Notes: generated by a model not told the origin, from the sequence alone. A stretch of DNA of 59,582 nucleotides from a bacterium (GCA_003251635.1 QKEW01000017.1:1-59582); one strand, 5' to 3'; counted from the stretch's first letter, positions 27,405 to 51,556 are shown. Program-made: numbers and translations.

Positions 27405-27756
27405 TCAATCAATCAAAATTTTTAAATGGCGGGGCTTTTCGAGAAAGCAAGAAGAAGTGGAGATGTCCTAGGTTGCCGCCTAGGTTGCCGCCTGATCCCC
27501 ACTGGGAACCCCGCCACACCAACTCCTTGCTGTTGTTCCACAAAAAGCCCCATAAAAAAGAACTAAAAAAACAATAATTCACACACTTTAAAAAAAGCAA
27601 GTATAGGAATTATTGTTTTTTTATTTTCTTGAAACGATTTAATAAAATAAATCGCCGCTTATTGCGATTAATCCTTTATGTTATTTTCTGAGACAAGAAC
27701 TTGCCATCCGAAAATGACAAGTCGACCGTTAGATTAAGCCCCAATAAATTAGAGCA

Positions 27757-27787
27757 TCACCTTAACTCCCTAGAAAGGAGGTGATTC
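27757..27787. repeat. orphan copy of the 16S rRNA 3' end/trailer junction (island boundary repeat, left)
   Basis: TCACCTTAACTCCCTAGAAAGGAGGTGATTC matches 51526-51556 at 29 of 31 positions. The core TAACTCCCTAGA recurs inverted at 27871-27882, over the integrase stop codon. Confidence 0.8.
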
Positions 27788-27810
27788 GTGGGAGGAATTG
27801 GTTCTTATGC

Positions 27811-27836
27811 TAAATCTTGCTTTTACTAAAGCAAGA
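27811..27836 (-). terminator. hairpin TCTTGCTTT-N4-AAAGCAAGA downstream of the integrase
   Basis: Perfect 9-bp stem followed by TTTA on the minus strand. Confidence 0.45.
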
Positions 27837-27871
27837 AATTCTTGAATTTACTCCTTTCAAACTAGGCGAAT

Positions 27872-28795
27872 CTAGGGAGTTATAGAATTTAAATCTATAT
27901 CCATATATTTCTCGTGGGATTTCTTGGCTTCTTCATCGCTCAAAACTCCAAGATAGTGACGGCTGGTGGTTTGCAAGTCTGAGTGCCCCAACAATATCTG
28001 AATCTGACCCAAACCCACACCCCTCTTAAGCAAGGTAGTGGCGAAACTTCTACGCAATGTATGAGCCGTGCATCGCTTGGAAAGACCTGACTTTCTAACA
28101 TAATTCCTGAAATTACGCTGGGCATCATTCCTATCCCAACGCCTGTGACTTTTGCTTTCTGCCACAAATACAAACTTATATCTATACTCTCTTTTTTTCA
28201 GGTAATCCCTAATGCATTGATTAGACCACTCAGTAAAATATATTTTTCGTTCCTTATTCCCCTTTCCAATTATTGTTGCTTCTTTATTTGTAAAATCTAT
28301 ATCCTCAATTTTCAGGTTAAGTGCTTCGCTAATTCTGCAACCAGTCGAAAATAAGACTGCAAATAATGCTCTGAATCTGAGGTCTCTTAAGCTTCTCGTT
28401 CCTATGGAATTGAAAAATTGCCTGAGTTCATCTTCTGTAAGGTATTCCACTTTGTGCTTAGGTATCTTTGGTCGTTTTATTTTCTCAGCATCCATTACTC
28501 GCAGATTCAACTCTCCTTTGCAAAATCTCAACAGGTTTCTTAATATGGAAAAATTGTGTGCTCTGGTACTGGGACTCAAATTTCTCCTGCTATATTCTTG
28601 CCTAAGTCTGAGTATATGTCCCTCATTGAGCTTTTCCATTTTCAAGTCTCCTAATATATCCAATGTCCATCTCAATGTCTTACTATATTCATAAATTGAA
28701 GCAGGAGCCATTTCTAGCTCCAACTCACAATAATCAAGATATAGCTTGCTAACTTCACTTAATTTTATTGAATTTTTCCTGTTAAAAAATAACAT
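27872..28795 (-). CDS. tyrosine recombinase/integrase (XerC/D-like)
   Basis: 307 aa with an N-terminal SAM-like domain. The catalytic region reads TGCRISEAL, GKGNKER, HTLRRSFAT and LLGHSDLQTTSRHY. Confidence 0.92.
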   Translation of the reverse strand: MLFFNRKNSIKLSEVSKLYLDYCELELEMAPASIYEYSKTLRWTLDILGDLKMEKLNEGHILRLRQEYSRRNLSPSTRAHNFSILRNLLRFCKGELNLRVMDAEKIKRPKIPKHKVEYLTEDELRQFFNSIGTRSLRDLRFRALFAVLFSTGCRISEALNLKIEDIDFTNKEATIIGKGNKERKIYFTEWSNQCIRDYLKKREYRYKFVFVAESKSHRRWDRNDAQRNFRNYVRKSGLSKRCTAHTLRRSFATTLLKRGVGLGQIQILLGHSDLQTTSRHYLGVLSDEEAKKSHEKYMDIDLNSITP

Positions 28796-28815
28796 CGGAT
28801 TTCATAGTTTGTCCG

Positions 28816-28843
28816 ATGTTAGCTTGCGTGCAGATTAAGTCAA
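28816..28843 (-). promoter_or_regulatory. promoter TTGACT-N16-TAACAT with a conserved GCTTGCGTG spacer box
   Basis: The -35/-10 hexamers have a 16-nt spacer, about 20 nt upstream of the integrase ATG. The module is paralogous to 30876-30903. Confidence 0.55.
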
Positions 28844-28857
28844 ATTCAGTTGTCCGC

Positions 28858-29958
28858 TTATCTTTTATTTTGAATTTTACTCTTCTTTTTCAAATTACCT
28901 TCGGCTAATCTTTTCAAATCTTCCTCATTTTCAACCCCTTTCAACCTCCCGGATAAGAAACCCAGTTTATAGCTAATGCCATCACTCATAATTCTCCAAT
29001 TGGTACTAGCCAAGGTTTTCTTAACAAGTGTCTGAAAATCCTGAACACTAACCATCTTCTCTCTGCCAATCTTGTTATCTTGCAAGCCAAAGCCGAGAAC
29101 TACATCTTTTAGAATTTCTGGCTTCTCAAACTCCAAATTACTGAAGCCATTTTTTTCAAGAACAGGATTCAAAAGGTTTTGCAATTCAATTATTGTAAGT
29201 TTCTTTATTTTTGAAATTTCGTCATAAAGCTCAGTATTCTCTTCTTTTTCTTTCATCTCATCAACCAACTGCTTCATACTCTCCAAATGCCCTCTTTCAG
29301 CTAAATAACTTATACCATCTTCGGTTGATAGACAATATTTTTTGCGATTAGCTTCAAAATCTTCATCAACATCATCTTCAGATTTTCTATCCAAATCCAG
29401 TGACTCCACCTCCTTGTAGTTGCAATCTGAACAAAAGTATATTGTTTCAATAATATTACCTTTTCTTTTATGCTCGGACTGCAAATAAGATTTGCATTTC
29501 GGACAAGGATTAGACCTTGGCTCCCATTCTTTGCCATTTTCCCAATAAGCTCTACGCTTACTACATTTTTCACATTGAAACATAAATACCACCTCGTCCT
29601 TGCCATTAGTATAGCCCATTAAATCACGAGAGATGCACTTCATTTTCAGAGAACTACAACCGATACAACGCACACCCTTTGGTTCGTGAGCATTTTCCAG
29701 TTTCTTATCTAATTCTCTATCTCTTTCCATCCATTCCTGAATTGTCTTGTCTTTATCGTAATGCCTTTCACCTTTCATAAAATACAGTGAGGTTGGAGCA
29801 ACACACGCCTCAAAAAACTCCTTTTTGAATTTAGCCACATTTTCATCTTTATCCTCCAACGACTTAAGACCATCACTTTTTTCTAACGACTTGCATCGGT
29901 CAATTGTGATTTTGTCGTAAAGCTCACTATAATAATTATAATCTTTCAAATTTTTCAT
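28858..29958 (-). CDS. hypothetical protein with two CxxC...CxxC zinc-ribbon pairs
   Basis: 366 aa with CIGC...CEKC and CPKC...CSDC. Its start overlaps the Macro gene stop by 4 nt. Confidence 0.6.
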
Positions 29959-30470
29959 TGCTGACTTAAAAGATTTTTATATATTTCATAATCATTATCA
30001 GAAAAAGATACGAAGTAAACTTTTTCTATATCGTGCCTCTCTTCTTCCAAAAAATCCTTAACTGTCTGAATTGCAATCGGAGCAGCCTCTTCAATAGGAT
30101 AACCGTATACTCCAGTTGAAATATTTGGAAACGCTATGGTTTTGATATTGTTATCTACAGCCAAGTGCAAGCTCATCATATAGCAACTCCTGAGCATATC
30201 CGATTCTCTTCCGTTTTCATTTCCATATATAGGTCCGACCGTATGAATTATCCATTTAGCTGGAAGTTTAAATCCTTTTGTTATTACGGCTTCTCCCTCC
30301 ATACATCCTCCGATTTTAAGACAGGCATTGTACAATTCCTCGCCTGCAGCGTTGTGAATAGCACCGTCCACTCCACCACCACCAAGAAGTCTCCTGTTTG
30401 CAGCGTTGACGATGGCATCAACTTCAAGAGTCGTTATATCTTGTTTTATGGCTAAGAGTTGGGTTTTCAT
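29955..30470 (-). CDS. Macro-domain protein (MacroD/YmdB-like ADP-ribose-derivative hydrolase)
   Basis: 171 aa with [30 protein letters not shown] and [12 protein letters not shown]. Confidence 0.88.
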
Positions 30471-30856
30471 TTTATAAAATCCAATAATTGATTTGGTTTT
30501 TCTTTTAGATTTATTTCTACTAACCTATGCAAGGCATTATTTCTTTTCAGCTCCTCCCTTTCTCCATCGAAAGCATAATCATCTAGCCAAAGAAAGTCTT
30601 TACTAAAATCAATCCCTTCAGTTTTCCAAAGACCGAAATTAGTGGGCTTTATTTTTTTTAGCAATTCAAAAGACTTTTCTGAAACCTTACCTCTTAGATG
30701 TTCCAGTGCAGTCGAAGCATCACCTTTGCAGTGACTGGTAAGCCAATAGCAATCGTGATTCTCGGTGGCAAATTTCAAAAAATCATAAAGGTGATTTGCC
30801 TCAAGTCCGCCTTGTTTTGTTATAAGCGTCCCGTCAATGTCTAGATATAAATTCAT
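30467..30856 (-). CDS. small HAD-like hydrolase
   Basis: 129 aa with the N-terminal LDIDGTL (DxDxT) motif and a later WLDD. It overlaps the Macro gene start by 4 nt. Confidence 0.55.
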
Positions 30857-30875
30857 ATTTATTAAAGTTTGTGCA

Positions 30876-30903
30876 ATGTTAGCTTCGTGGTGAATAAAGT
30901 CAA
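30876..30903 (-). promoter_or_regulatory. promoter TTGACT-N16-TAACAT with a conserved GCTTCGTGG spacer box
   Basis: Same architecture and about 30 of 38 nt shared with 28806-28843. The box TTAGCTTCGTGG also occurs at 49756-49767. Confidence 0.55.
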
Positions 30904-30909
30904 CACTTA

Positions 30910-32178
30910 TTATGCACTGTCAAAGGATAATCCGCTCTGCTTAAGAAAGTCATCGACAACATCTTCCCTGATATCTTCAAATCCTAAATCCCAATAAATT
31001 TCTCTCAACAAATTTATAAAGTATTTTTTCAAATCTTCCCCATTGTTTAAAATATTAGTATCAATTTTTATATCCCAACTACATTCAGCAAGTAGACACT
31101 CTCTATCTTTTTCCCAAAAATCACGACCTGCGGGTGTTAATTGCCTTGCAAATGCATCATCTAAACCAGTCAGATTTATTTTTCCTACTAACACTCCGCT
31201 GTAACCATATTTATTATAAAATTTCTTGGCAAATTGAAATACACCGAAAATTCTAACGGCTATTCTCCAAAGGCTTACTATTTTAAATCCAGTATCTTCA
31301 CTTAATACTGAAACAGTAAATTTATTTTGAATTAGTCCTTGACTAAAAATTTGCTGAAACTCAATTAAATTGTTGTGTTTCAGGAAGGTGAAAAACATAA
31401 TTCCTTTTGGTGAAGGTATTACATTCAATTCAGGAAATGTAAAATTTCCATTTTTAAATCTAATCTCATCAATTCCATTTTTTATTTCTTTTGGGTTAGC
31501 AAATGATTGTTTTGGAAAAAATGGCTGGATAGTTATCTCACACATAGAAATATCTGTGACAAGAAATCTTCTGCTTTTAAAAATCACCTCCTCGCCTGCT
31601 TTTCTACTTTCTCTTATTATCTCATCTTCTTTCTTTAATACTTTTGCGTCAAAAATTTCATCAGCCATTGATAGGTATACTTTTCTGGACTTTTCAGCTT
31701 TCTCTTTCTTTCCAAACATAAGCTCCAACCCATCTGGAGAAGCAAGGTCTATTTGCTTTGTAATATTTCCAGTCCTGATATAGACATTTGAATCGTTTTG
31801 CACATAATAAGGAGTATTATCTCCTGAAAAAACCCTAACTAAAATAAAGAATTTATCATTTTTTGAATCTGTGGCGTGAACAACGCAGGAAGGAAATGGC
31901 TCAATATTTGCTATTTCTTGATGTAATTTTTCTATTTGCTTCGCATCAGTATCTATGCCATTCCAGTTTTTCGGAAATCCCGTTTTAATATCTTCCTCCA
32001 CTCCAATTATAATTACTCCGCCCCTACTATTGGATAAAGCCACTATATGTTTTGATAATCCTTTTGAAGAGTAATCCCGCTTATAATCAATTTGAAATCC
32101 TTCTCTGTATCCCTTTTCACAAAATGCAACGACATCTTCGAATTTAAAAGATTCAATTGGCTTGTTTAATATATCCAT
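30910..32178 (-). CDS. Schlafen/AlbA_2-domain protein with an uncharacterised C-terminal half
   Basis: 422 aa. The N-terminal pattern ESFKFEDV...IDYKRD...KHIVALSNSRGGVIIIGVEED is typical of the AlbA_2 (divergent AAA/Schlafen) DNA-binding domain. Confidence 0.7.
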   Translation of the reverse strand: MDILNKPIESFKFEDVVAFCEKGYREGFQIDYKRDYSSKGLSKHIVALSNSRGGVIIIGVEEDIKTGFPKNWNGIDTDAKQIEKLHQEIANIEPFPSCVVHATDSKNDKFFILVRVFSGDNTPYYVQNDSNVYIRTGNITKQIDLASPDGLELMFGKKEKAEKSRKVYLSMADEIFDAKVLKKEDEIIRESRKAGEEVIFKSRRFLVTDISMCEITIQPFFPKQSFANPKEIKNGIDEIRFKNGNFTFPELNVIPSPKGIMFFTFLKHNNLIEFQQIFSQGLIQNKFTVSVLSEDTGFKIVSLWRIAVRIFGVFQFAKKFYNKYGYSGVLVGKINLTGLDDAFARQLTPAGRDFWEKDRECLLAECSWDIKIDTNILNNGEDLKKYFINLLREIYWDLGFEDIREDVVDDFLKQSGLSFDSA

Positions 32179-32184
32179 CTTAGG

Positions 32185-32532
32185 TTAATCCTTATGTTTT
32201 AATAATGACTCGTTTTCAAAATGGGTAACTTTTCCAGTTTTTTTATCAATCACTTTTTGATAATAAGTTTTGTTTTTCTTATCAATTCTCCTTTCTTCAA
32301 TAACCCCTTCAGGATACTTCTTCATATCGCCACTGCTCTTATGCCTTGAAATAAATTCAACCATAAAATTTTTGAACCCTTTGACTTTTTGCTTTATACC
32401 AAAGTTTTCCGTAAAAATGGCGGAGTCGGTAATTGTAACTTTATACAACTTACTCTTACTACCACAGTTTGGACAAACTGAATTTCCATTAGGAAGTTTA
32501 GTTTCGCACTTTTTACATAAAATTTCTTTCAT
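32185..32532 (-). CDS. zinc-ribbon protein
   Basis: 115 aa with N-terminal CKKC-x11-CPNC. Gaps to the flanking genes are 6 and 13 nt. Confidence 0.55.
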   Translation of the reverse strand: MKEILCKKCETKLPNGNSVCPNCGSKSKLYKVTITDSAIFTENFGIKQKVKGFKNFMVEFISRHKSSGDMKKYPEGVIEERRIDKKNKTYYQKVIDKKTGKVTHFENESLLKHKD

Positions 32533-32545
32533 TGGCTTTCGTATT

Positions 32546-33889
32546 TTATAAACTTTGTTTAGTGATTACATTCTCATCAATAACAACGGTGCAGATGGCA
32601 TAAGCTAAAACATTTCTGGTTTGGTCATCAACACCGAAACACTCTACGAAATGGCTACCTCTAAAAACAGCACTCTCAGTTAAATTTAATGTATTATTTC
32701 TATTGATTTCTCCTCTTAATTGCTTGGCTCTTGTAGCCTGTTCGCCAGTGTTTGTAACCTTATAAAAATATTTGGTTATTTTAGATTTAGTGTGATTAAC
32801 GGGTGATAAAAATTTAGCTTTAAATTTAATCTTGTCATTCTTGTTTAACCTGACAATGCCACTTTTGTAATCTTCTGATTCTTCATTCTTAATGGCAGCA
32901 ATATAAAACATCGGGCTAGTCAATCTATTGATTGCCGAGCTATAACCATATGCTTCTATAAATTCTTCTCCTGACACAAGCCTGTGAAATATTCCTATTA
33001 ATTCCTTCTCACCTTCCACTTTTTTTATTTGTTCAACTAACACTAAAGCACATCTCGCTGCTAATCTAATCAATTTCTTCTCATTCTCATTTAATTCATC
33101 AATATAATCATCCACATATTTATTTCTCGCTCTGTCTGGAAATTGCCTTACACTTATAAATCCATTTATATTTCTAAAAAATAATTCCGCTAAACCAGAA
33201 ATGTCCATTTCGCTATTTTCTGAAATAAGTTTTTGCACAATCAGTTCTAAATGAAAAGATTTTAGCTTAAATTCTATACCCTTAAAGTTTCTTTTATTTT
33301 TCCAAGAGTTTCTCCACGCCTTCAGTAATTTTGCAGTCTTCCTAAAATTGGACGATTCTTCGTTTATTATTTTAGCTAATTCTATATAACCCCAGGGGTC
33401 GGTTTTAATCCATTTAACATCATTTTGCAAATTAACTTCTGGTATTGCATATATAGGTTTACCAAATTCATTAAACTGTTCTAGTTCACGAGCTGGAACA
33501 ATATCAATTTTAAAATCTCCCTCTTTATCTACAAATTCAATTTTCACAGAACGCGTTTGCGTCTTTGCCTTTATTTTTATTCCTAATATTTTGTATTCGG
33601 CTTCCAGTTTTTCTACCAAATCATTCAGTATATTATTTAAATTCAAATCTCCTGAGGAAATTTGCCTCTTTGATTCTTCAGGTAAAACCCAAATCACATC
33701 CAAATCATTTAGGGGCGTGATAGCGGTGAATCTGGCATATGAACCACTTTGAAATATTTTCCCTTCCAATATCTTACTTAATCTCTCGTATTCTTGCTGA
33801 ACAAAAATCTTTTCTTCCTTTGTTGGGGAATGAAAATCTCTTACAAATAAAGAGATGGGATTTCCAGCTTTTTTTTCACTATTTATCAT
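32546..33889 (-). CDS. SMODS/CD-NTase-like nucleotidyltransferase with a beta-rich C-terminal extension
   Basis: 447 aa with a Pol-beta fold triad: GS (SGSYARF), DLD (NDLDVIWV) and a third acidic residue in FKIDIVPA. This is followed by IKTDPWGY...TAKLLKAWRN, as in SMODS/CD-NTases. About 140 aa of unassigned C-terminal domain remain. Confidence 0.7.
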   Translation of the reverse strand: MINSEKKAGNPISLFVRDFHSPTKEEKIFVQQEYERLSKILEGKIFQSGSYARFTAITPLNDLDVIWVLPEESKRQISSGDLNLNNILNDLVEKLEAEYKILGIKIKAKTQTRSVKIEFVDKEGDFKIDIVPARELEQFNEFGKPIYAIPEVNLQNDVKWIKTDPWGYIELAKIINEESSNFRKTAKLLKAWRNSWKNKRNFKGIEFKLKSFHLELIVQKLISENSEMDISGLAELFFRNINGFISVRQFPDRARNKYVDDYIDELNENEKKLIRLAARCALVLVEQIKKVEGEKELIGIFHRLVSGEEFIEAYGYSSAINRLTSPMFYIAAIKNEESEDYKSGIVRLNKNDKIKFKAKFLSPVNHTKSKITKYFYKVTNTGEQATRAKQLRGEINRNNTLNLTESAVFRGSHFVECFGVDDQTRNVLAYAICTVVIDENVITKQSL

Positions 33890-34370
33890 AATTCATAGTT
33901 ATAACTGACATAATTATATCTCCCAACAATCTGTTTCTAAAATTAACAACGTTAGTGTGTTTATATTTCTGAAGCTTGTCCATTATCTGAACATCTCCAG
34001 GTTTTGCATAAATAATAAGAGCCTTCTTATCATTTTTCTTTTTTAAAACTTCGTCAATATCATTACCCCAATCTGACCAATCCAATAAAAATATGGAAGC
34101 GCCCTCTGAAGACTCCACGTCACTGACTGAAGAAATTTGAATTATATTTTTTTCTTTAAAAAGATTTGCTCCAACGAGTAAATTTTTTAAATCGGAAAAA
34201 CCATTAGTCGCAAAAATTGCAATTTTTCTTCCACGTAACCCATTACCAAGCCTCAATAACACAAGTTTAATACCGAACATCCATTGAATAAAAGCCGAGA
34301 TTATTTTTATAGCCAACAATGTTGCTGTGACATAACCAATAACAGTTAAAAAACTTTTTATTATTTCCAT
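33879..34370 (-). CDS. N-terminally membrane-anchored protein with a small alpha/beta domain (candidate partner/effector)
   Basis: 163 aa with a hydrophobic helix (FLTVIGYVTATLLAIKIISAFIQWMF), then alternating beta-alpha segments (KIAIFA, IFLLDW, ALIIYA). It overlaps the NTase start by 11 nt. Confidence 0.55.
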   Translation of the reverse strand: MEIIKSFLTVIGYVTATLLAIKIISAFIQWMFGIKLVLLRLGNGLRGRKIAIFATNGFSDLKNLLVGANLFKEKNIIQISSVSDVESSEGASIFLLDWSDWGNDIDEVLKKKNDKKALIIYAKPGDVQIMDKLQKYKHTNVVNFRNRLLGDIIMSVITMNYDK

Positions 34371-34380
34371 ATGATATTGA

Positions 34381-34584
34381 TTATTTTTTCCTATTATACG
34401 GACTCTGATTTGTGGGTTTTAAACTGATTTTATTCTCACTAGCCTTTATCTGAACAGCATTTTCAGTTCTTCCCAATTTCAATCCAATTACTCTTGTGGG
34501 TGTATTCTTTTTTGCCAGTGATTTTAATTGGGAGACTTCCTTAGCATTCCAAGCTTTTCCACTGTTTCTATTGTATTTTGCCAT
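34381..34584 (-). CDS. small GcrA/Myb-like HTH protein
   Basis: 67 aa. The pattern W..KEV.QLK.L....T....IGLKLGRTENAVQIKA resembles the GcrA N-terminal DNA-binding motif. Confidence 0.4.
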   Translation of the reverse strand: MAKYNRNSGKAWNAKEVSQLKSLAKKNTPTRVIGLKLGRTENAVQIKASENKISLKPTNQSPYNRKK

Positions 34585-34614
34585 TTGGTTTTTATTTAAT
34601 GATTAAAAAATTAT

Positions 34615-35277
34615 TTACACTTTTAAAACATCTAGCACTTTACCATTTATAATCAAATCATCTTCAGGGGTAAGATATATAGGCAAGAAATCTTTATTTT
34701 TTGACTGCGGAAACAAGCCGATTTTATCTTCTTCCAAATATCGCAATAGCTTAATTGTCGCTAGCCCATCAAGGATGGCAAGCACTGGAATGTTACTGTC
34801 GCCAAAGGCTGGTTTATAATTAGAATCAATTAAAACGTAGTCTCCATCCTCAATATTTTTCCCCTTCAATCTATAATCATTCATTGAATCTCCTGAAGCC
34901 TGGACGGCGAAAACATTTTTCGTGCTATTCCCTAATAATCCTCTTGAAACTTTAAGTGTTCCCTGCTTGTATTGTTCAGCAAAAATATTCGCCACACCGC
35001 AATTTGCACTCCCATAAATCGGGACATCTGCAAACATCATTTTTGACGCATCAAGAATTTCAATCGCCCTGGTTTCTGGATTTCTTCTTACCAATCCTTT
35101 TTTCTCAAGGTCATCAAGATACATAAAAATACTCCTTGGACTTTTAAGTATCAATCCGAAAGATTTTACAGCTTCCTGTAATTCTCGTATAGACGGCATT
35201 TCTCCGTATTTTGCATAAAATTTCTTTAATGCTTTAAATACTATATCCTGTTTTCTATTAAGTTCTTGCATATTCAT
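34615..35277 (-). CDS. lexA: LexA-type / S24 peptidase-family repressor
   Basis: It has an N-terminal wHTH (PSIRELQEAV...YLDDLEKKGLVRR) and a C-terminal S24 domain with GDSM serine and a downstream K (TIKLL). The ORF extends to 35337, but MNMQELN at 35277 fits the promoter and terminator positions. Confidence 0.82.
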   Translation of the reverse strand: MNMQELNRKQDIVFKALKKFYAKYGEMPSIRELQEAVKSFGLILKSPRSIFMYLDDLEKKGLVRRNPETRAIEILDASKMMFADVPIYGSANCGVANIFAEQYKQGTLKVSRGLLGNSTKNVFAVQASGDSMNDYRLKGKNIEDGDYVLIDSNYKPAFGDSNIPVLAILDGLATIKLLRYLEEDKIGLFPQSKNKDFLPIYLTPEDDLIINGKVLDVLKV

Positions 35278-35305
35278 ACTGTATACACTGTTTAACTTTA
35301 TGTAT

Positions 35306-35333
35306 ATAATACAGCATTCTGAAATTTTGTCAA
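35306..35333 (-). promoter_or_regulatory. promoter TTGACA-N16-TATTAT for the lexA-like gene
   Basis: A consensus -35 and a near-consensus -10 on the minus strand. CTGTAT-containing partial palindromes overlap and follow the -10. Confidence 0.6.
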
Positions 35334-35335
35334 TC

Positions 35336-35358
35336 AAAAAGCAGGGGACGCCCCCTGC
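35336..35358 (-). terminator. rho-independent terminator GCAGGGGG-CGT-CCCCTGC + TTTTT
   Basis: GC-rich perfect stem followed by a T-run on the minus strand, downstream of the methylase gene. Confidence 0.7.
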
Positions 35359-35433
35359 TAAACTTCATTCTCGCTATAATTTTAGTTATATCCCCCTATC
35401 GTCTCCCAAACTCATACTTATTTATATATATCA

Positions 35434-36195: not shown

Positions 36196-36196
36196 A

Positions 36197-43190: not shown

Positions 43191-43191
43191 A

Positions 43192-44265: not shown

Positions 44266-44476
44266 GGTCGTTTAACAAGTACTTACAGGCCAAACCTATC
44301 GCTTTCGGTTTTCCAGTAATTCCGAATTTCTCATCAAGCACCCTTTCCAATTCTCGAATTACTTCTTGTTGTTCCTGCCAAAGGAAGATAAAATCTTGCT
44401 GTCCTTTTTTGCTGACAATTTTAATATCAGCATTGCTTATTTTTTCCGCCAACGTTTCTTTTTTACTTTTGCTCAT
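44234..44476 (-). CDS. hypothetical small protein
   Basis: 80-aa ORF that overlaps the methylase start. Confidence 0.4.
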   Translation of the reverse strand: MSKSKKETLAEKISNADIKIVSKKGQQDFIFLWQEQQEVIRELERVLDEKFGITGKPKAIGLACKYLLNDLEEKEDVKES

Positions 44477-44537
44477 AATTCTACTTTTTAGTTAGTTAAT
44501 TACTCTTTACTCCTTACTTTTTGAAAATGTAGTGTCA

Positions 44538-44900
44538 TTATTTTTTATTGCACGACATTTTCTTTAATCTTAAATAATTAGATTTTAATCCCTCATATTT
44601 TTTTAATAATTTCATTCGTCTTTTTAAGGCTGTTTTCAATGGAACCCTAGACTTAACAAGAGTATTAAACAATCTTGAATAACGAATTTCCATATACTCA
44701 TCAACTGGCACACTCAAATCTTTTTCCATTCTCCTCAAAAATATTTCCCAGTTTTTCAGTGCTTCTTTCACACTCTCATATTCACCAAGCGATATGACGT
44801 TTTGTCTGACTTTATTGCCTTTCCTATAAGCCTCGACTACCTGATATCTTTCTGATATTTCACCCTTTTTGAGACTTATAATTCTTTTCCTGACGAACAT
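44538..44900 (-). CDS. hypothetical basic protein
   Basis: 120-aa ORF, 1 nt from the upstream ORF. Confidence 0.45.
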   Translation of the reverse strand: MFVRKRIISLKKGEISERYQVVEAYRKGNKVRQNVISLGEYESVKEALKNWEIFLRRMEKDLSVPVDEYMEIRYSRLFNTLVKSRVPLKTALKRRMKLLKKYEGLKSNYLRLKKMSCNKK

Positions 44901-44901
44901 T

Positions 44902-45099
44902 TCACATCTTTTCTAGGTCAAACTTATAATCTGGTCTTTTCGGATTTTCGTGTTTGAAGATGTTCTCGAACACTACCAGCTTATATTCCTGACCATTGAC
45001 TTCGACTGTACCTGTCAGATAGATGTTTCCGCCTTTGGAAGACTTTTTCCACAAAGCACATTTTTCTATCTGAGGCAGATTCTTTTCGCCTTGTTGCAT
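44902..45099 (-). CDS. small DUF736-like protein
   Basis: 65 aa. GNIYLTGTVEVNGQEYKLVVFEN...KRPDYKF resembles DUF736 proteins of plasmids and ICEs; this is a weak call. Confidence 0.35.
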   Translation of the reverse strand: MQQGEKNLPQIEKCALWKKSSKGGNIYLTGTVEVNGQEYKLVVFENIFKHENPKRPDYKFDLEKM

Positions 45100-45117
45100 A
45101 TTATTTAAATTAAAAAA

Positions 45118-46029
45118 TTAGCTTCTTTTTCTCACCCAGCCTTTTTCTTCATACACCCACGCATCAAACTCTTCATTGCTGGAGTTTATGAAATCGATTC
45201 CGTGTTCGAGTCTCATCATATCGCAAAAATTTTCCAGTTTTCCCACACCTATCTCAAGCTCTACAGGATTTGTTATGTTAGGAGCATATTTGAAAAATCT
45301 CGCCCTCTTTGATGCCTTTATGAGTCCAGCCAATCTTTCTTCGCCAAGTGTCGAAAATAGTCTTTTTGCAGATTCTCGCTGAGAAGAACTCCCAATTAAA
45401 ACTGAAATCATAGGATTAACCTCTTTAAAGGCATAGAAGATTTTATCGATTGCTTTATCTGAAATCTCAGAAAAATCAAAGTGGGGCTTACAATCGTTTG
45501 CGATTGTAGATATATTTTTTTTACTACTTAAAGCATTTACCTTATTAGCACTTAAAGCATTTGTCTCCTGTTTTCCACTTGTTGGATTTTCTACTTGTTG
45601 AATTTCGGGGTTCTTGAATTCCTCTATCGTGATTTCATTCGGAATCTCATTTAATTCCTTTTTAATTAGCAAACTTTCAACTTCTTCAGCTTTTTCAGTT
45701 TTCCAGATATATTTCAGCTTTATATACCAACCCACGATTTTTCCGCCCTCTCTACGCATAATTATTTCGATTAAATTCATTCTTTGAAGAAGTGTCTTAG
45801 CTTTTGCAAATCTTCCCTTACCCCAGCCCAATCCCCTCATACAATAACTGTCACTGGCTTTAACTTGATTTGTTTTTTGCCATTTAGCCACATAACAGTA
45901 AAAACAATAGAGGGCTACTGCATCCGCACCGTTTTTAAATTGATATAGATTATGAAGCGTTCTTGTTGTCAGCAATACAACTTCGTCTTCAAGCATTATT
46001 TTAGGTTTAGTTTCAGTTGATTTTTGCAT
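45118..46029 (-). CDS. putative replication/wHTH protein
   Basis: 303 aa. Its N-terminal region is typical of phage/plasmid replication-organiser wHTH proteins (ADAVALYCFY...GLGWGKGRFAKAKTLL). The repeat-rich non-coding region lies upstream of it. Confidence 0.4.
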   Translation of the reverse strand: MQKSTETKPKIMLEDEVVLLTTRTLHNLYQFKNGADAVALYCFYCYVAKWQKTNQVKASDSYCMRGLGWGKGRFAKAKTLLQRMNLIEIIMRREGGKIVGWYIKLKYIWKTEKAEEVESLLIKKELNEIPNEITIEEFKNPEIQQVENPTSGKQETNALSANKVNALSSKKNISTIANDCKPHFDFSEISDKAIDKIFYAFKEVNPMISVLIGSSSQRESAKRLFSTLGEERLAGLIKASKRARFFKYAPNITNPVELEIGVGKLENFCDMMRLEHGIDFINSSNEEFDAWVYEEKGWVRKRS

Positions 46030-46109
46030 ATTTGCTTACAGAAAAAGGGCTACACGATGAGAGAATAGCCCTTTTACCATACTCATCGTTAAAATTTGTT
46101 ATAAAAAAA

Positions 46110-46167
46110 TCCGCAATACAGTTAAACATACAAGAGTAAATCTTGCGTGCTCGCATTGTATTGCGGA
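46110..46167. repeat. 11-bp inverted repeat TCCGCAATACA / TGTATTGCGGA, followed by reiterated (CG)ATTGT(ATT) motifs
   Basis: The arms lie at 46110-46120 and 46157-46167. ATTGTATT/ATTGTG motifs recur at about 46155, 46178 and 46195. Confidence 0.6.
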
Positions 46168-46334
46168 CTTCTGACCGATTGTATTCGGCGATATTCGATT
46201 GTGCCTTAATTATACTCTTCATAGTCTATATGTCAATACTTTATGGCTCAAATAAAGCATTTTACTTTATTGTCAAGTTATTGTTCAACTGACTCGTGAT
46301 TGGGAAGCAATAATATTGCCACCCAACCCACCAA

Positions 46335-46844
46335 TCAATTGGGGCATACGCATTCAAAAAATCCTTCGGGATAAAACAATTCTTCTTCGTCCACTTCTAT
46401 CCTATTGTTTTGAATCAACCACATAAGTGCCATATAAAGATTATGTTCATCAAGTTCAGCAAGAACAAGTAGTTCATCAAAGGAACTGGCAGGAAAAAGT
46501 CCTATAGTGGCACAAAGATATTCGGCATCATTATCAAATTTTTCCTTGGACATTCCCCAATTCCTAAGATGTACTTCATAATTATCGAGGGTTATTCTAT
46601 TTTTGAAATATGCTTTCCCATTGGTTACGCCCGCTAACTTTACCGCTTCAGTCATAGTAAGTAGCGACATCGCCTGAATCACCTCGATTTCCGACAACCT
46701 TGTAGCTTTCTTCAAATCAGGTATGGACATTAAATTTGGTGATTTCTCCATTACTTCAATAACTTTCTTAAGTGATTTTCCCCTCTTTTGAATCATTTTA
46801 GCTTTTTTTTCAAGAGCGTTTGCTTTTTTAATTTCTTTTTTCAT
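46335..46844 (-). CDS. hypothetical protein
   Basis: 169-aa ORF. No motif recognised. Confidence 0.45.
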   Translation of the reverse strand: MKKEIKKANALEKKAKMIQKRGKSLKKVIEVMEKSPNLMSIPDLKKATRLSEIEVIQAMSLLTMTEAVKLAGVTNGKAYFKNRITLDNYEVHLRNWGMSKEKFDNDAEYLCATIGLFPASSFDELLVLAELDEHNLYMALMWLIQNNRIEVDEEELFYPEGFFECVCPN

Positions 46845-46935
46845 TTTTTTATTGTTACTTTGTTTATTACTCCTTTTATAGTTGATTGCCGATTATGGGC
46901 ATTTGCGAAGTGTTTCAACTTTTCAAACATTCACG

Positions 46936-47898
46936 TCATTTTTGCGCCACCTCCTTTCCAGGTTCATTTTCTATATTGAAACCGCCCATTATTTCCTTAT
47001 GCACTCTTTCTACCTCAGAAAAACTGGTGTTGCCCAGATAATATCTTTCAGTCACAGATGGAGTTGCGTGTCCTAAAAATCTCTGTACGACTGATAAACT
47101 GGCTTTTTGATGGAAAAGCAAACTCGCACTGGACCTACGTAGCAAATGAGGGTGTATACTTATCTGAAATCCAGCACGCTTTCCCTGATTTCTAAGAGCA
47201 CGCTCCAAATCATTTATTTGCCATCTCTTGGGAGAATCTGTATTTGCAGTAACAAACAAAGCTGGATTGTTATCGATTCTCATCGCCAAGTATTTTTCTA
47301 TATAACCGATAGCCAATTCGTTAAAAATCAATGTATGCATTTTCCCTCCCTTTGCTAGAACCTGAGCTTTTCCATTTTTAAAATCAATATCCGAGATATC
47401 GAGCCTTATCAATTCACTCACCCTACAAGCACTGGAAATTAGACAGATAACAGCTGTTTTCAATCTCAATCTCGATATATTTTCTTCGGATATGGAATCT
47501 ATCAGTTCTTGCAACTGCTTTTTGTTTAAATGAATAATCTGCTTGGCTGGAATTTTGAATTTTTTAATAAGATTAGGATTGTATATTTTTATGCCATCAT
47601 CTCTTAAGCACTGAAGTATATTCTTAAGAACAACGAGATAATGATTTTTTCTGGAAGCACTTAGGGGGCAGCCAGTTTTCTCGGATTTCATCAGATTTAA
47701 TTTTTGCTTTAGATTCATAACGGTATCCCCATCAAACTTTTTAATTTTCACATCGCCCAATAAACTCAATAAGCCATTTGATATTTCCCTATACTTCTCA
47801 ATCGATTTTTTAGACAGCAAAGCATTCGCCTCCAATTTGGCGAAGTAACGTTCAGATGCTTCTGAAAATGTTAAGTTGTTGAAAAACGGGAAATTCAT
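46936..47898 (-). CDS. tyrosine recombinase/integrase
   Basis: 320 aa with SACRVSEL, AKGGKMH, HPHLLRRSSAS and FLGHATPSVTERYY. Confidence 0.9.
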   Translation of the reverse strand: MNFPFFNNLTFSEASERYFAKLEANALLSKKSIEKYREISNGLLSLLGDVKIKKFDGDTVMNLKQKLNLMKSEKTGCPLSASRKNHYLVVLKNILQCLRDDGIKIYNPNLIKKFKIPAKQIIHLNKKQLQELIDSISEENISRLRLKTAVICLISSACRVSELIRLDISDIDFKNGKAQVLAKGGKMHTLIFNELAIGYIEKYLAMRIDNNPALFVTANTDSPKRWQINDLERALRNQGKRAGFQISIHPHLLRRSSASLLFHQKASLSVVQRFLGHATPSVTERYYLGNTSFSEVERVHKEIMGGFNIENEPGKEVAQK

Positions 47899-47995
47899 TT
47901 CAAAACAAAAAACTGATTACTTATGTAACCAGTCTAGTATTTTCTCAAATTGCAAAATAGAAAATTAAATGAATCTAGAAATTATGTGTACTCAC

Positions 47996-48790
47996 TTATT
48001 TTCTCTGCCTATCTCTTTCATCTTTTATAATTTTATTGATATAGGTTTCGTCCATAACTTCACCAAATTTTTCACGCACAAGGCTTATTAGTTCTTTCTT
48101 GCTTCTTCCGAATCTATTTTTATAAATGAATTTATTTCTTTCTTCAACTCTTTTTGATTTTCTTCTTACTATTCCTAACTTTATCTTTTCATTGCGATAT
48201 TTTTTCTGAAGTGGCTCTATTTGCAATTTGTAAAGTTTTTTGACAGCATCAATAACATCTCTTTGCGACATATATGGGTGAATCATTATTCCTACTGGAT
48301 TTATCTTTGAAACTGTCTTTAGATGATAAGTTTCAAAACTCACATCGGATTCAAATCCAGCTTCAACATTAGAAAGTGCCAATTTTACATCTATAATTTC
48401 AATTACATCAAATTGGGTATCCATATAATCTGAAACTGCATCTGTATTTCCAAACAACAGATAACTCTCAAGAAAATCATAATAAGCAGGAGATGCATAA
48501 TTTTTAGCTAATTTGAAGATTTTGTTTGTATATTTTTCATCCCTTATATAGACCATTTCTTCAAACTGAGAACTACTCTTTGGATACTTAAATCCATTTA
48601 TTGGAATTCCGAACTCTTTTCTGAAGCTATTAACGCTTTTAATGAATTCTGGTTTTCTAGCCAAATCCATTATGAAAGAATCCACTTTCTTAAAAGCGGC
48701 TGTTTCCTTTAACGCTTGCCACAACCTTTCATCTTGTTCAATTTTATCCTCAGCTTCAAATATTTTTTTCGAATCTTTTGTTTTTTTCAT
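47996..48790 (-). CDS. hypothetical protein between two recombinase genes
   Basis: 264-aa ORF with a basic C-terminus. No motif recognised. Confidence 0.45.
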   Translation of the reverse strand: MKKTKDSKKIFEAEDKIEQDERLWQALKETAAFKKVDSFIMDLARKPEFIKSVNSFRKEFGIPINGFKYPKSSSQFEEMVYIRDEKYTNKIFKLAKNYASPAYYDFLESYLLFGNTDAVSDYMDTQFDVIEIIDVKLALSNVEAGFESDVSFETYHLKTVSKINPVGIMIHPYMSQRDVIDAVKKLYKLQIEPLQKKYRNEKIKLGIVRRKSKRVEERNKFIYKNRFGRSKKELISLVREKFGEVMDETYINKIIKDERDRQRK

Positions 48791-48843
48791 CTATATAAAA
48801 TCTATATTTACTATAATTTTACCACAAATTTTTCTATCCGAAA

Positions 48844-49743
48844 TCAATATCTTAAATACTTCTCATATGCCTGTTTTGCCTTTTCCTTGTCTGTTAGCCC
48901 TACATAGTAGCGAATTGTTGTGTCCAATCGTTCGTGTCCCATCAAGGTTTTGATTTCTGAAAAAGGGCAGGCGTTGAATACAAGGTGTGAGGCGAAGCAG
49001 TGACGGAGAAGATGCGGTGTCACTTTCTTGTTTATTCCAGCTATAAGCCTCTGTCTCTTAAAATATCTAGTCAAATCCTGATTTCTGAGTCTGCGAGGGT
49101 CTTCTCCCGTGGTTATAAACAAAGCTTCGTGTTTATCTGTCCTCCTATCCAAATATTGCCTAATCCAGCTAATGGCTTCTTCATTAAAAAATACTACCCT
49201 TTCCTTATTCCCTTTTCCAATTACCCTCGCTTCTCTTCTGGTAAAGTCTATCGAATTGCGGTTTAAACTCAAAGCTTCAGATATACGCATTCCTGAAGCA
49301 AGCAGGACTTCGACCAGTGTGCGGAACCGCAGACCATATATGGGTTTGATATCAATTGAATCCCTGAATCTCTGTATTTCTTCAGAGGTCAAAAAAACAA
49401 CCTCTCTTCTGGGTCGCTTGGGAATCGTGATATCGCTTGGATTTATACGAAGTGGGATTGAAAGCTGGGTTTTGCAGTAATTGAGCAATCCTTTTATGCA
49501 GGCTAGTGCCACGCCTATGAATACTTCGGAATTATCCCTCTGGTGCAAAATCTGCTTGAGTCTAAATATATGCTCCATCGTGAGTTCCTCTATGACAATA
49601 TCCCCTACATCCCTCACGAAGCACTTGAGTCGCGACCTGTAGCTCACAATCGAGCTCTGGGCGAAGCGTTTTTCAACCTGAAGCCACATCAAGTATTCTT
49701 CGCTCATATTCTGGATGGTTCGCATTTGAGTTTGTGTTTCCAT
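48844..49743 (-). CDS. tyrosine recombinase/integrase (paralog of 27872-28795)
   Basis: Motifs are SGMRISEAL, GKGNKER, HLLRHCFAS and LMGHERLDTTIRYY. The listed ORF starts at a GTG (49752); the first ATG is at 49743, 9 nt downstream of a TAATGT -10-like box. Confidence 0.9.
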   Translation of the reverse strand: METQTQMRTIQNMSEEYLMWLQVEKRFAQSSIVSYRSRLKCFVRDVGDIVIEELTMEHIFRLKQILHQRDNSEVFIGVALACIKGLLNYCKTQLSIPLRINPSDITIPKRPRREVVFLTSEEIQRFRDSIDIKPIYGLRFRTLVEVLLASGMRISEALSLNRNSIDFTRREARVIGKGNKERVVFFNEEAISWIRQYLDRRTDKHEALFITTGEDPRRLRNQDLTRYFKRQRLIAGINKKVTPHLLRHCFASHLVFNACPFSEIKTLMGHERLDTTIRYYVGLTDKEKAKQAYEKYLRY

Positions 49744-49802
49744 AGCACTCACACATTAGCTTCGTGGCACACAAAAGCAAGTCTAGTTATCCACTCCTGA
49801 AA

Positions 49803-49833: not shown

Positions 49834-49864
49834 CCATTTCACTTACGGCTTTTTTATCTATCTC

Positions 49865-50482
49865 CTAAAAACTAAAAACTGAGAGAAGCCAATTCAGAAA
49901 ACTCTTCTGTGAATCCGTTACTGTCCCCTGTTCATCCAAGGTGACTTTTGATTCTACTTCCACGGGAATAAGAAAGAATAATTTTTCGTCCTTCTTAACT
50001 AAAGCCACATTTCCTTCTTTAGAAATCACTTCCCCATAACCCTCCACGTATTTTATGGATTCTTCAGAAATTTCCTGGGAAACTTCTGATGGTTCAGAGG
50101 CCTCAGAAACCTCCTCTGCCTCAACTGATTGCTCTGAAACTTCATCCGAAGATTTTTCAGAAAGCTCAGATGCATTCAACCCAGTTGTTGTTCTGGTAGT
50201 TTTTATCGACGGAGCAGAAGAAACGCTAGGTTCAGATTTTTCATCATCTTGAGATTCTTCATCATCCTGAGACCCTTCGTCATCTTGAGATTCTTCATCA
50301 TCCTGAGAGTCTTCATTATCCTGAGAACCCTCATTGGAACCTGAAGCACCACTGCCTTCTTCAGCTGAAGTGACATTTGTCCCAACAATTTCTTTTGTAA
50401 AAGCGCTGGCAAACAAAAACAGGAACAATACCGCAATGGAAGCTAGCAGCATTCTTTCTGTTTTGAACTTCTTAAAAGCCAT
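49865..50482 (-). CDS. secreted acidic repeat protein
   Basis: 205 aa with an N-terminal signal/TM helix, then (E/G)SQDD(E) hexapeptide repeats and Ser/Glu-rich sequence. Confidence 0.6.
   Translation of the reverse strand: MAFKKFKTERMLLASIAVLFLFLFASAFTKEIVGTNVTSAEEGSGASGSNEGSQDNEDSQDDEESQDDEGSQDDEESQDDEKSEPSVSSAPSIKTTRTTTGLNASELSEKSSDEVSEQSVEAEEVSEASEPSEVSQEISEESIKYVEGYGEVISKEGNVALVKKDEKLFFLIPVEVESKVTLDEQGTVTDSQKSFLNWLLSVFSF
50239..50328. repeat. 5 x 18-bp tandem repeat (coding, hexapeptide SQDDE-type)
   Basis: The units are TTCATCATCTTGAGATTC, TTCATCATCCTGAGACCC, TTCGTCATCTTGAGATTC, TTCATCATCCTGAGAGTC and TTCATTATCCTGAGAACC. Confidence 0.85.
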
Positions 50483-50535
50483 ATGTTTTATTTTTATTAA
50501 TTTATTAACTTGTTTTTATTTTAACACAAAAAACG

Positions 50536-51210
50536 CTATTTTGCATCTTTCTCACTAATTACGCAATGCTCTTTTATGTTAACATATCCCAAAATTCCAA
50601 GGGCTATTACCTCGGAAACTTCTTCGGTCAGCCTCATCAAATGCAAAACTACCTTGTTGCAATATTGTTCATAGCAAAAAGTTATTCCTGAATTTTTCCC
50701 CACAAACCCATCCAAAAAATCCAAGAAAATCGCAAACCCCAAAACCAATAGGGCTATGATTATGGTTTTTTTGTTTTTTTTAAGAGCGTCTTTCCAAATA
50801 AGCCATAAAAAAGCAGCCAAAGAAAACATAAGCAACGGGAAGTATATGATTGTCCAGACATAAGAAGGAAAAAATCCCAAAGCAGAAGTATTATCAACAA
50901 AAAAACCACTCACTCTTTCGTGAAAATACGTAGCATCATCCATACTAAAAAAGAAAAAGATAATCGCCAAAAAATACCAAATCTTTTGTTTTTTATGAAG
51001 ATAAACACTGAATGCAGAAAGTGCAATGAAAAGCAGAGCCAGGGAGCTTATCCAGGTCAAAGGAGTCTGCTCTCTAGTTGCCAAAAAAATATCGCCAAAA
51101 ACAGTTTTGGGGTAATAAAAATATGCCAACAAATCAAGTAGCAATAAAATAACCACAAGTAAAAACCCTATGCTATAAATTCTTTTTATGAAAGTTTCTG
51201 AAAAATACAT
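50536..51210 (-). CDS. polytopic membrane protein, unknown family
   Basis: 224 aa with about 6 hydrophobic helices. Confidence 0.55.
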   Translation of the reverse strand: MYFSETFIKRIYSIGFLLVVILLLLDLLAYFYYPKTVFGDIFLATREQTPLTWISSLALLFIALSAFSVYLHKKQKIWYFLAIIFFFFSMDDATYFHERVSGFFVDNTSALGFFPSYVWTIIYFPLLMFSLAAFLWLIWKDALKKNKKTIIIALLVLGFAIFLDFLDGFVGKNSGITFCYEQYCNKVVLHLMRLTEEVSEVIALGILGYVNIKEHCVISEKDAK

Positions 51211-51327
51211 ATATTTTATTTTTATCCCTATATAAAAAGTATATCACAAAAATGAACAGCCAGCACAAAAATGCATATAAACCCTGCCAAGAAATGAAAC
51301 GTTTCCAGGGAGTGGAGGAACGTAACG

Positions 51328-51350
51328 CAAAAAACACCCTTTTGGGGTGC
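51328..51350 (-). terminator. rho-independent terminator CACCC-CAAAA-GGGTG + T6 after the 16S trailer
   Basis: Hairpin plus T-run on the minus strand, about 190 nt downstream of the 16S 3' end. Confidence 0.6.
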
Positions 51351-51525
51351 CTTTAACGCTACAAGCAAAGCGAAAAGATTCGCAAGCTATTGTGGTTAGT
51401 CCTAAGCCCGCCTAAATGCTTTCGCATTCAGTACGGGTAAATGTTTATTCTGAGCCAAGTGTCATTAACCGAAGTTAATGAACGACCTTATAGGTTTGAG
51501 AAACTGATACTGAGTATCAACTCTG

Positions 51526-51542
51526 TCACCGTAACTCCCTAG

Positions 51543-51556
<14 letters not shown>
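51526..51556. repeat. 16S 3' end/trailer junction (island boundary repeat, right)
   Basis: TCACCGTAACTCCCTAGAAAGGAGGTGATCC. It contains the anti-SD end of the 16S and matches 27757-27787 at 29 of 31 positions. Confidence 0.8.

Follow-up and report, generated by a model that had tools for sequence, protein, structure and literature searches.

Probable integration of mobile DNA at the 3' end of the 16S rRNA gene in Moranbacteria and their relatives

Introduction

Site-specific islands target tRNA genes, tmRNA genes and some protein genes. In this study, we analyzed a 59,582-nucleotide stretch of bacterial DNA (GCA_003251635.1 QKEW01000017.1:1-59582, hereafter the window), in which a solitary 16S rRNA gene and an orphan copy of its 3' tip enclose a block of about 23.8 kb with four tyrosine recombinase genes (int1 to int4), and in which the end of the 16S gene appears to be the landing site for mobile DNA. 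The closest described systems are islands and prophages that integrate at the 3' ends of tRNA or tmRNA genes, that is, the Islander/TIGER class and elements with P4-, P22- and HP1-type integrases (described in part in PMC4383910). The window resembles them in the tyrosine recombinase at one island end, in a probable crossover within the 3'-terminal part of a gene for a structural RNA, in a displaced part that the element would carry so that the gene would be regenerated, in the orphan direct-repeat fragment at the far end, and in tandem stacking, decaying scars and defence-rich cargo. Unlike in those islands, the target here is the 16S tip with its anti-Shine-Dalgarno region; because this is a 16S rRNA gene, one defining feature of the tRNA/tmRNA-island class is absent. 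In addition, the restored part lies mostly outside the mature RNA, being a trailer of about 200 nt that has to pair with the host leader, a requirement absent from those islands, and a terminator, and the recombinase is short, Xer-like and without a lambda-type arm-binding domain.

Three further groups of systems invite comparison. First, int1 is like XerC/XerD, XerA and XerH, and like the recombination of CTX-phi-type integrative mobile elements exploiting Xer (IMEX) and XerT of TnPZ, in its structural kin (XerA/XerC-like proteins and XerD) and in a dif-type putative core with inverted half-sites of about 10 bp; a two-partner Xer mode of int1 and int4 is conceivable. Unlike in the Xer systems and IMEX, the recombinases are encoded by the element, the site is no dimer-resolution site, no FtsK dependence is implied, and accessory half-site motifs stand in the arm. 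Since the element has its own recombinases (four genes) and makes no use of dif, it is not an IMEX. Second, the eukaryotic rDNA elements R1/R2 (non-LTR, long terminal repeat, retrotransposons) and Pokey and the 16S introns of the candidate phyla radiation (CPR) likewise use an extremely conserved rRNA sequence as a safe and ever-present target. Those elements insert inside the mature rRNA region by means of a reverse transcriptase/endonuclease, a transposase or a homing endonuclease and either inactivate the copy or are spliced out, whereas the insertion considered here would be at the very 3' tip, by a tyrosine recombinase, with the gene restored; the element is not an rDNA retrotransposon. 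Third, phage satellites and prophage-like islands similar to phage-inducible chromosomal islands (PICI) share with the window an integrase, a DnaD-like protein resembling replication initiators, ParB, a methyltransferase and TerS/TerL; genes for capsids or tails were not found in the 23.8 kb. The window differs from them in its four recombinases, and it has no known helper phage and no relatives in IMG/VR.

Searches of an open-access library gave no description of a bacterial integrase with its attachment site at the 16S 3' tip, which is an indication and not proof of absence.

Results and Discussion

A repeated 16S end beside an integrase gene

The pattern TCACCKTAACTCCCTAGAAAGGAGGTGATYC matched the window only twice, as a left and a right copy (Table 1), and matched shuffled sequence not at all. 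The two copies agree at 29 of 31 positions, exactly as the initial annotation had reported, and share an exact core of 23 nt (27763-27785 and 51532-51554); they lie 23,769 nt apart. The window 16S gene matches model positions 1 to 1533 in 1,533 nt, is free of insertions and is complete to its last position according to Rfam. From the extent of this match, the right copy consists of the last 14 nt of the 16S gene and 17 nt of trailer, so that its description as the genuine anti-Shine-Dalgarno end is confirmed. Beyond the left copy, GTGGGAGG follows instead of 16S sequence. This copy had been described as an orphan near the stop codon of a tyrosine integrase, which is right; its distance, given as 85 nt, was measured as 84 nt. 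Within the gap and across the int1 stop codon, the 12-mer TAACTCCCTAGA recurs in inverted orientation at 27871-27882, as also claimed, with 0.12 matches expected by chance.

Both copies continue into a complete 16S trailer, and weak collinear homology between the two regions extends about 130 nt past the core. The orphan-linked trailer has a terminator-like hairpin (27561-27626) and the 3' half of a processing stem (27650-27675, stem type B), an architecture that matches Moranbacteria trailers (alignment A1). In the 16S-linked trailer, the stem half is of type A (51380-51403) and mismatched at one position, a C-A; a hairpin plus T-run is present at about 51334-51352. In relatives, too, the trailer terminates in a terminator-like hairpin. 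The diverged homology that had been noted between TATTGCGATTAATCCT (27660-27675) and TATTGTGGTTAGTCCT (51388-51403) is present at those positions. Both segments pair with the leader segment AGGACTAACCGCAATA, which begins at 53239 and not at 53238 as first given. Read strand against strand, the left segment pairs at 16 of 16 positions, two of them G-U, and the right segment has one C-A mismatch; these counts had been stated correctly. Computed with RNAduplex, the left trailer-leader duplex has an energy of -46.1 kcal/mol (shuffled trailers -20.7 +/- 2.8) and the right one of -52.6 kcal/mol (shuffled trailers -28.5 +/- 3.9).

The 16S gene is about 89% identical to that of a Moraniibacteriota metagenome-assembled genome (MAG) and 93-98% identical to several metagenome contigs, which places the window in a CPR/Patescibacteria bacterium near Moranbacteria; the nearest named relatives in a genome-contig scan with a 20-mer were Moraniibacteriota as well. 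Rfam detected no 23S gene in the window, and none was present within 10-13 kb of the 16S gene in ten related loci. As the 16S gene is unlinked from a 23S gene, an insertion after it splits no rRNA operon.

Given these features and the comparisons below, one or more integrative elements of a Moranbacteria-specific family were probably inserted at the tip of this solitary gene by site-specific recombination of a tyrosine recombinase. The initial annotation had supposed an ancestral order of 16S gene, trailer and tRNAs that was later invaded by an element, or by a tandem array of elements, bringing along a mimic of the 16S end and trailer. That proposal gains support from a fixed topology, a linked recombinase family, two comparisons of occupied and empty loci (L129 with L159, L130 with L165) and native tRNA spacing.

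Recurrence of orphan tips and their link to the int1 family

A metagenome scan with a 30-mer yielded 45 loci with 46 copies, comprising 37 true 16S ends and nine orphans. Every orphan leaves the 16S sequence at one and the same base, after GGTGAT, and continues with TCGTGGGAG or a near variant; the arm reads GATTCGTGGGAG. Together with the window, seven pairs of an orphan and a 16S gene were found, spaced 4.9-35.7 kb apart: besides the 23,769 nt of the window, the spacings are 35,737 nt in Ga0172380_10000184, 25,969 nt in Ga0209319_1000923, 7,730 nt in Ga0209202_1000115, 6,742 nt in L176, 6,358 nt in L130 (the same as L166/L156) and about 4,900 nt in L165, whose orphan is degenerate (L-numbers are labels of fetched relative loci). 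One arrangement holds for all seven pairs: the copies are direct repeats, the orphan stands on the downstream side of the 16S gene, and the conserved arm points into the interval. The architecture from int4 to int1 is also found in Ga0172380. Where no integrase is nearby (L130, L147, L153, L165), no more than the first 12-20 nt of the arm remain next to the orphan; such orphans are best read as scars.

The genome-contig scan brought up a further orphan tip at L036 6778-6850 (Parcubacteria MAG JBAZUU010000006.1); it has no GTGGGAG arm and no adjacent integrase, and a second TTTCTAGGGAG stands 50 nt upstream. Its trailer resembles the orphan trailer of L179, so that L036 probably shows a scar which the same process left in a different lineage.

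The closest solved structures to int1, which is intact, are the XerA/XerC-like 4a8e and XerD 1a0p. Its family is discrete, with about 79 clusters at 51% identity or more and then a drop to 39% or less, and its source labels are Moranbacteria or Parcubacteria. The catalytic R-K-H-R-H-Y set of tyrosine recombinases is present: an alignment of 73 members including int1 shows no variation at R154, K181, R248 and H271 and hardly any at H245 and Y281. Twelve distinct members had readable surroundings, and in 10 of them an orphan 16S tip lies 3' of the integrase gene, 84 nt to 8.3 kb away. The finding is not confined to the window but generalizes to an element family in Moranbacteria and relatives. 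IMG/VR viral contigs contained neither a match to the 23-mer nor a relative of int1. The initial annotation had spoken of two terminal integrases; this count has to be corrected to four tyrosine recombinases in the interval, and int1 and int4 are 36% identical.

Two observations concern the upstream side of these genes. Directly upstream of the int1-family gene of L174, a diversity-generating retroelement pair (bAvd accessory protein and reverse transcriptase) occupies 8333-9760. In the window, a promoter-like stretch TTGACT-16 nt-TAACAT with a common CACGAAGCTAACAT precedes int1 (28806-28843), the open reading frame (ORF) 30467-30856 (at 30866-30918) and int4 (49756-49795). The repeats D7/D8 upstream of the same three genes were considered as recombination sites and rejected; they are read as homologous promoters, which suggests common regulation.

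Occupied and empty loci

Insertion at the 16S tip predicts that the former trailer comes to lie at the island's distant boundary and that the 16S gene is now followed by a foreign one, and the comparisons for three contigs agree with this. The orphan trailer of L129 shares 94% identity with the trailers that follow the 16S gene in L159 and L123, but only 70% with the one that follows the 16S gene on its own contig. Homology between L129 and L159 extends over 755 nt, through the trailer into the flank, and trailer plus flank are 90-94% identical to L159/L123. The orphan trailer of L126 shows the same pattern, with 86% and 82% identity to its relatives L150/L137 against 75%. In L130, two genes and a trailer stand beside the orphan, and a 6.4-kb insert separates them from the 16S gene; the same genes and trailer abut the 16S gene in L163 and L165. 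L130 can be described as the L165-type arrangement to which a 6.4-kb insert, placed exactly at the 16S tip, and an IS3 element have been added, and its orphan trailer is closest to the 16S-linked trailer of L143. The IS3-family transposase pair of L130 (4546-5834) lies between the 224-aa gene and the displaced trailer and explains an extra 1.5 kb relative to L165. On these alignments, the orphan trailers are orthologous to the 16S-linked trailers of relatives, which is the signature of occupied versus empty sites. The alignment with related genomes that had been proposed for finding an empty site succeeded in this respect (L129 against L159/L123, L126 against L150/L137, L130 against L165/L143) and failed for the genome of the window itself. 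Many 16S loci among the relatives, for example L159 and L145, have no orphan at all.

The tRNA side of the window fits this picture. The order 16S gene, trailer, tRNA is native in L159 and L145, with 476 and 319 nt between trailer and tRNA, compared with 353 nt on the orphan side of the window. We infer that the three tRNA genes just past the displaced trailer were the original downstream neighbours of the 16S gene. They share no common repeat with the other island end.

Putative core and proposed mechanism

On the 16S-sense strand, the putative core reads CTCCCACGAA, TCACCTCCT and TTCTAGGGAG in succession, that is, two inverted half-sites of 10 bp, symmetric at 8 of 10 positions, round a 9-bp centre. 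Two inverted half-sites round a short centre are the usual core layout of tyrosine recombinases. The centre TCACCTCCT is the anti-Shine-Dalgarno sequence. Centre and right half-site fall within the block that is identical between element and 16S gene, and the left half-site contains a single T/C difference. The 29 bp would be the candidate site of binding and crossover. Furthermore, the integrase-side arm contains another copy of ACTCCCTAG. In L124, L171 and L172, this copy stands at +64 in direct orientation, whereas the window, L129 and L126 have it inverted, at +94/+96; a motif copy at such a fixed offset looks like an accessory binding site.

We propose the following course of events. The attachment core would consist of the last 12 nt of the 16S gene and the first 11 nt of the trailer, and strands would probably be exchanged within the near-palindrome CTCCCACGAA/TTCTAGGGAG round TCACCTCCT. 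What is cut off would be brought by the element itself: the end of the 16S gene, an entire new trailer that includes the 3' half of the leader-trailer processing stem, and a terminator. Supplied with these parts, the 16S gene would stay functional. The crossover topology implies that the present 16S-linked trailer would have arrived with an element, and the earlier trailer with its tRNAs would have been displaced by 23.8 kb, ending in an orphan 16S tip beside int1. As the target would be regenerated at each insertion, islands could stack and then decay. In a circular form, int1 and int4 would flank attP; L124, a short contig with a type-B trailer, the arm and an int1-type gene, could be such an attP form.

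A more far-reaching combination of these ideas is possible, although we hold it only tentatively and would sooner expect it to fail in some part. Strand exchange would occur in the anti-Shine-Dalgarno sequence; the elements would be routine suppliers of the 16S 3' maturation signals of Moranbacteria (stem half and terminator), so that many trailers would be derived from mobile DNA and co-evolve with the leader; attP would lie between int1 and int4, which would act as a XerC/XerD-like pair; and the family would have an unusually widespread natural attB. With regard to the last point, the 20-mer CTCCCTAGAAAGGAGGTGAT, which makes up 20 nt of the 23-nt core, was found by the genome-contig scan in more than 120 species of many phyla, almost always at genuine 16S ends, and the family could for this reason find its natural attB unusually widely.

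If insertion at the 16S tip is true, the anti-Shine-Dalgarno end of the 16S gene, the most conserved bacterial sequence, joins the integration targets, and elements of this kind have to bring a trailer that works in rRNA processing and fits the leader of the host, which is a new constraint on host range. The unlinked, solitary 16S genes of CPR bacteria would then be tied to a hotspot at which defence islands turn over. CPR assemblies contain stray 16S 3' ends, which would be accounted for, and the compact Xer-like integrase family would provide candidates for the engineering of bacteria that are hard to manipulate.

Points of difficulty and alternative explanations

Several observations weigh against insertion at the 16S tip as proposed. 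First, the half-site inside the 16S gene agrees with that in the arm at no more than 3 of 10 positions, no gene product was recognized as a recombination directionality factor, and two int1-family genes (L173, L174) have no orphan within 10 kb. Second, no empty site was obtained for the window's own genome, where a look-up of the flanking penicillin-binding protein (PBP) gene gave one 6.4-kb contig, from SRR7216773, ending before the 16S gene; neither trailer of the window has a close relative among the loci fetched (identity of 69% or less). Third, host-like genes stand next to the 16S gene. A block of two genes between int4 and the 16S-linked trailer of the window has homologues of 75-89% amino acid identity that adjoin the 16S trailer in L163, L165 and L146, and in Ga0172380 a host-like stretch (147 aa, 169 aa and YceG) lies between the 16S gene and int4. 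Such genes are either captured or older DNA, or else the element entered elsewhere than at the core. Fourth, the window and L165 have the rarer stem type B on the orphan and type A on the 16S gene, and L130 has the reverse. As type A is the commoner 16S-linked type, the window taken alone can be read as an intact attP and an intact attB. Truncated type-B remnants are found at the far side in L143 and L146. Stem types and host-like block might be accounted for by stacking and decay of successive islands, or by host flank that was captured with a trailer in an aberrant excision; the latter would also explain how the elements acquired a trailer.

The most serious alternative takes up the third and fourth points. 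Under it, the left copy is an intact attP, the element arrived in another way (by an int4-type integrase at another site, or by homologous recombination), and the 16S end was not used here. The stem types of the window, with B next to the integrase arm and A next to the 16S gene, agree with this, as do the host-like genes still attached to the 16S-linked trailer in the window and Ga0172380 and the combination of type-B trailer, arm and int1-type gene on the short contig L124. However, it would leave unexplained why the copies are direct repeats in all seven pairs and why the orphan always follows the 16S gene on its downstream side, no more than 36 kb away, and equally why the orphan trailer and flank of L129 are contiguous homologues of the 16S-linked trailer and flank of L159. 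The tRNAs of the window also stand at native distance from the orphan trailer. A second att pair for an int4-type integrase was sought by comparing the tRNA region with the int4 junction, and k-mers of at least 13 nt with the whole island; nothing above chance emerged, and no att-like repeat joins these two places. We consider this explanation unlikely.

Sites and recombinases might instead form a domesticated switch by which the host controls excision or rearrangement at its rRNA locus. The very large and highly conserved int4 family would suit such a role, and remnants of the arrangement appear ancestral to the clade (L143, L146, L165 and the window). Yet the cargo is highly variable and rich in defence genes, many related 16S loci (L159, L145) are free of orphans, scars with truncated arms are common, and genes for a terminase and a DnaD-like replication protein belong to the module, all of which makes a host switch very improbable.

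The orphan might also be what a second rRNA operon, since deleted, or a segmental duplication has left behind, with the integrase nearby by coincidence. This would agree with the full trailer architecture on both copies, but the same break base in at least 12 independent loci, always followed by the same non-16S arm, the retention of never more than 12-14 nt of 16S sequence and the tie of the orphan to one recombinase family leave this account hardly credible. Finally, an assembly chimera, in which two unrelated contigs were joined at the 23-31-nt repeat, might be suspected because rRNA ends are common break and join points in metagenome assemblies and a Logan contig with the upstream PBP gene ends near the 16S gene, but we give it next to no weight, as the repeat is below the usual assembly k-mer length, the same architecture was assembled independently in JGI, ENA, NCBI and Logan contigs (protein P0003 occurs on 21 contigs), and L130 and L166/L156, from different samples, are identical over the 6,030 nt compared.

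Contents of the interval

The interval between the two repeat copies is composite and holds four recombinases, a terminase module, defence genes and the host-like block of two genes (Table 1). In 16S-sense order, the trailer is followed by the two-gene block, the module from int4 to int2, the defence cargo, int1, the arm with the core, the second trailer and the tRNAs.

Table 1. Coordinates of the features described, counted from the first letter of the window.
Feature	Position	Strand	Basis
Three tRNA genes (one odd, then Glu-TTC, Gln-TTG), just past displaced trailer	27142..27404	-	ARAGORN + Rfam
Orphan-linked (displaced) 16S trailer	27560..27756	-	inverted repeat I1, stem motif, leader duplex
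Left (orphan) copy, 16S 3' end + trailer start, attL-like	27757..27787	.	repeat match; no 16S sequence beyond
Putative recombination core	27766..27794	.	read from sequence; 29-mer invariant or nearly so in 12 distinct orphan junctions
Integrase-side arm: conserved GATTCGTGGGAGG, int1 terminator hairpin, second inverted TAACTCCCTAGA (27871-27882)	27788..27882	.	sequence comparison
int1, Xer-like tyrosine recombinase, 307 aa, intact	27872..28795	-	PF00589 (E = 1e-37), PF02899
Defence/accessory cargo	28858..38045	-	Pfam, PADLOC
Conserved phage-like module	38988..49752	-	Pfam, PHROGs
int2	38988-39848	-	Pfam
TerL	40494-42032	-	phrog_9, E = 4.5e-70
TerS-like	42019-42567	-	Pfam/PHROGs
ParB	42576-43190	-	Pfam/PHROGs
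D12 methyltransferase	43192-44265	-	Pfam/PHROGs
DnaD-like protein	45118-46029	-	Pfam/PHROGs
int3	46936-47898	-	Pfam
int4, then a 264-aa protein (16S-sense order)	48844-49752	-	Pfam
Two-gene block (205 aa; 224-aa membrane protein; function not assigned) between int4 and 16S-linked trailer	49865..51210 (50536-51210, 49865-50482)	-	homologues in relatives
16S-linked trailer	51330..51542	-	inverted repeat I6 with leader, duplex energy, alignment A1
Right copy, spans 16S 3' end + trailer start, attR-like (or attB-like)	51526..51556	.	Rfam 16S end + repeat match
Solitary 16S rRNA gene	51543..53075	-	Rfam, 1422 bits
Leader half of 16S processing stem, can pair with either trailer	53239..53262	-	inverted repeat, stem motif, duplex energy

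The cargo encodes a 366-aa zinc-ribbon protein, a macro-domain protein, a Schlafen/AlbA_2 protein, a cyclase and a one-transmembrane (1TM) effector of a cyclic-oligonucleotide-based antiphage signalling system (CBASS), a LexA-like S24 repressor, and DpnII with two methyltransferases. The GC content of this region is 0.31-0.38, compared with about 0.39-0.42 in most of the flanking sequence. Modules of the window cargo are found at 53-83% amino acid identity just upstream of int1-family genes in four loci (L171, L172, L181, L182). Among the sets that recur, the 366-aa and macro-domain proteins form one, the Schlafen/AlbA_2 protein another, and a further one joins the LexA-like repressor to the CBASS cyclase and 1TM effector. 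The CBASS genes (32546-34370) form a type I pair, an oligonucleotide cyclase with an AGS_C sensor domain and the 1TM effector, in a CPR genome; this module and its LexA-like neighbour recur in L181 at 60-83% identity. The DpnII restriction enzyme and its two methyltransferases occupy 35434-38045.

The phage-like module recurs in the same gene order from int4 to int2. It follows the 16S trailer directly in L184/L185 and at 4 kb in L186/L187; L184 is a Moraniibacteriota contig of 1.27 Mb with the module at 10001-19715. In Ga0172380, the module begins 4 kb past the trailer and the interval is likewise closed by int1. No match to capsid or tail structural proteins was obtained among the scanned ORFs of the 23.8-kb interval. 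With 926 proteins at E <= 1e-40, many of them 70-86% identical, the family of int4 is very large and conserved, and for this reason int4 was considered as a housekeeping Xer of the host. This was rejected as int4 always travels with the int3-methyltransferase-ParB-TerL-int2 module, and int4 is treated as part of the element because of this constant company. In L179, an int4-type gene (62% identical) begins just past the displaced trailer, a layout as expected for stacked islands.

The two-gene block lies in the rightmost 1.7 kb of the interval. In L130/L166, its homologues stand outside the island, beside the orphan. The block is a candidate for captured host flank, an older island layer or resident DNA. 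Inside its 205-aa gene, at 50222-50329, five overlapping units of 36 nt spaced 18 nt apart form an 18-nt tandem repeat that encodes an acidic, serine-rich DDEESQ-like repeat.

Additional observations on 16S genes and tRNAs

A 16S intron of the CPR type, an insertion inside the mature region that usually encodes a LAGLIDADG-type endonuclease, was rejected for the window, whose 16S gene is insertion-free and whose accessory DNA begins after the trailer. Long insertions are present in 16S genes of relatives (L165, about 5952-6834, with an ORF of about 146 aa; L104, 262-2045). In some Moranbacteria, the 16S tip reads GGTGATTC rather than GGTGATCC (L122, L133 and L149, and also L049, L098 and L104), with the same T as in all element arms; such tips may have been left by earlier crossovers, or they may show the sequence of the hosts in which the elements originated.

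The tRNA gene at 27142-27213 (minus strand) was reported by ARAGORN as 'tRNA-???' with a two-base anticodon 'ca'; it scores 54 bits with Rfam, and its anticodon loop, judged by eye, has six bases, CTCAAA. Two adjacent copies of CCTAGGTTGCCGC occupy 27468-27494, in the stretch that separates tRNA-Gln from the terminator hairpin belonging to the displaced trailer.

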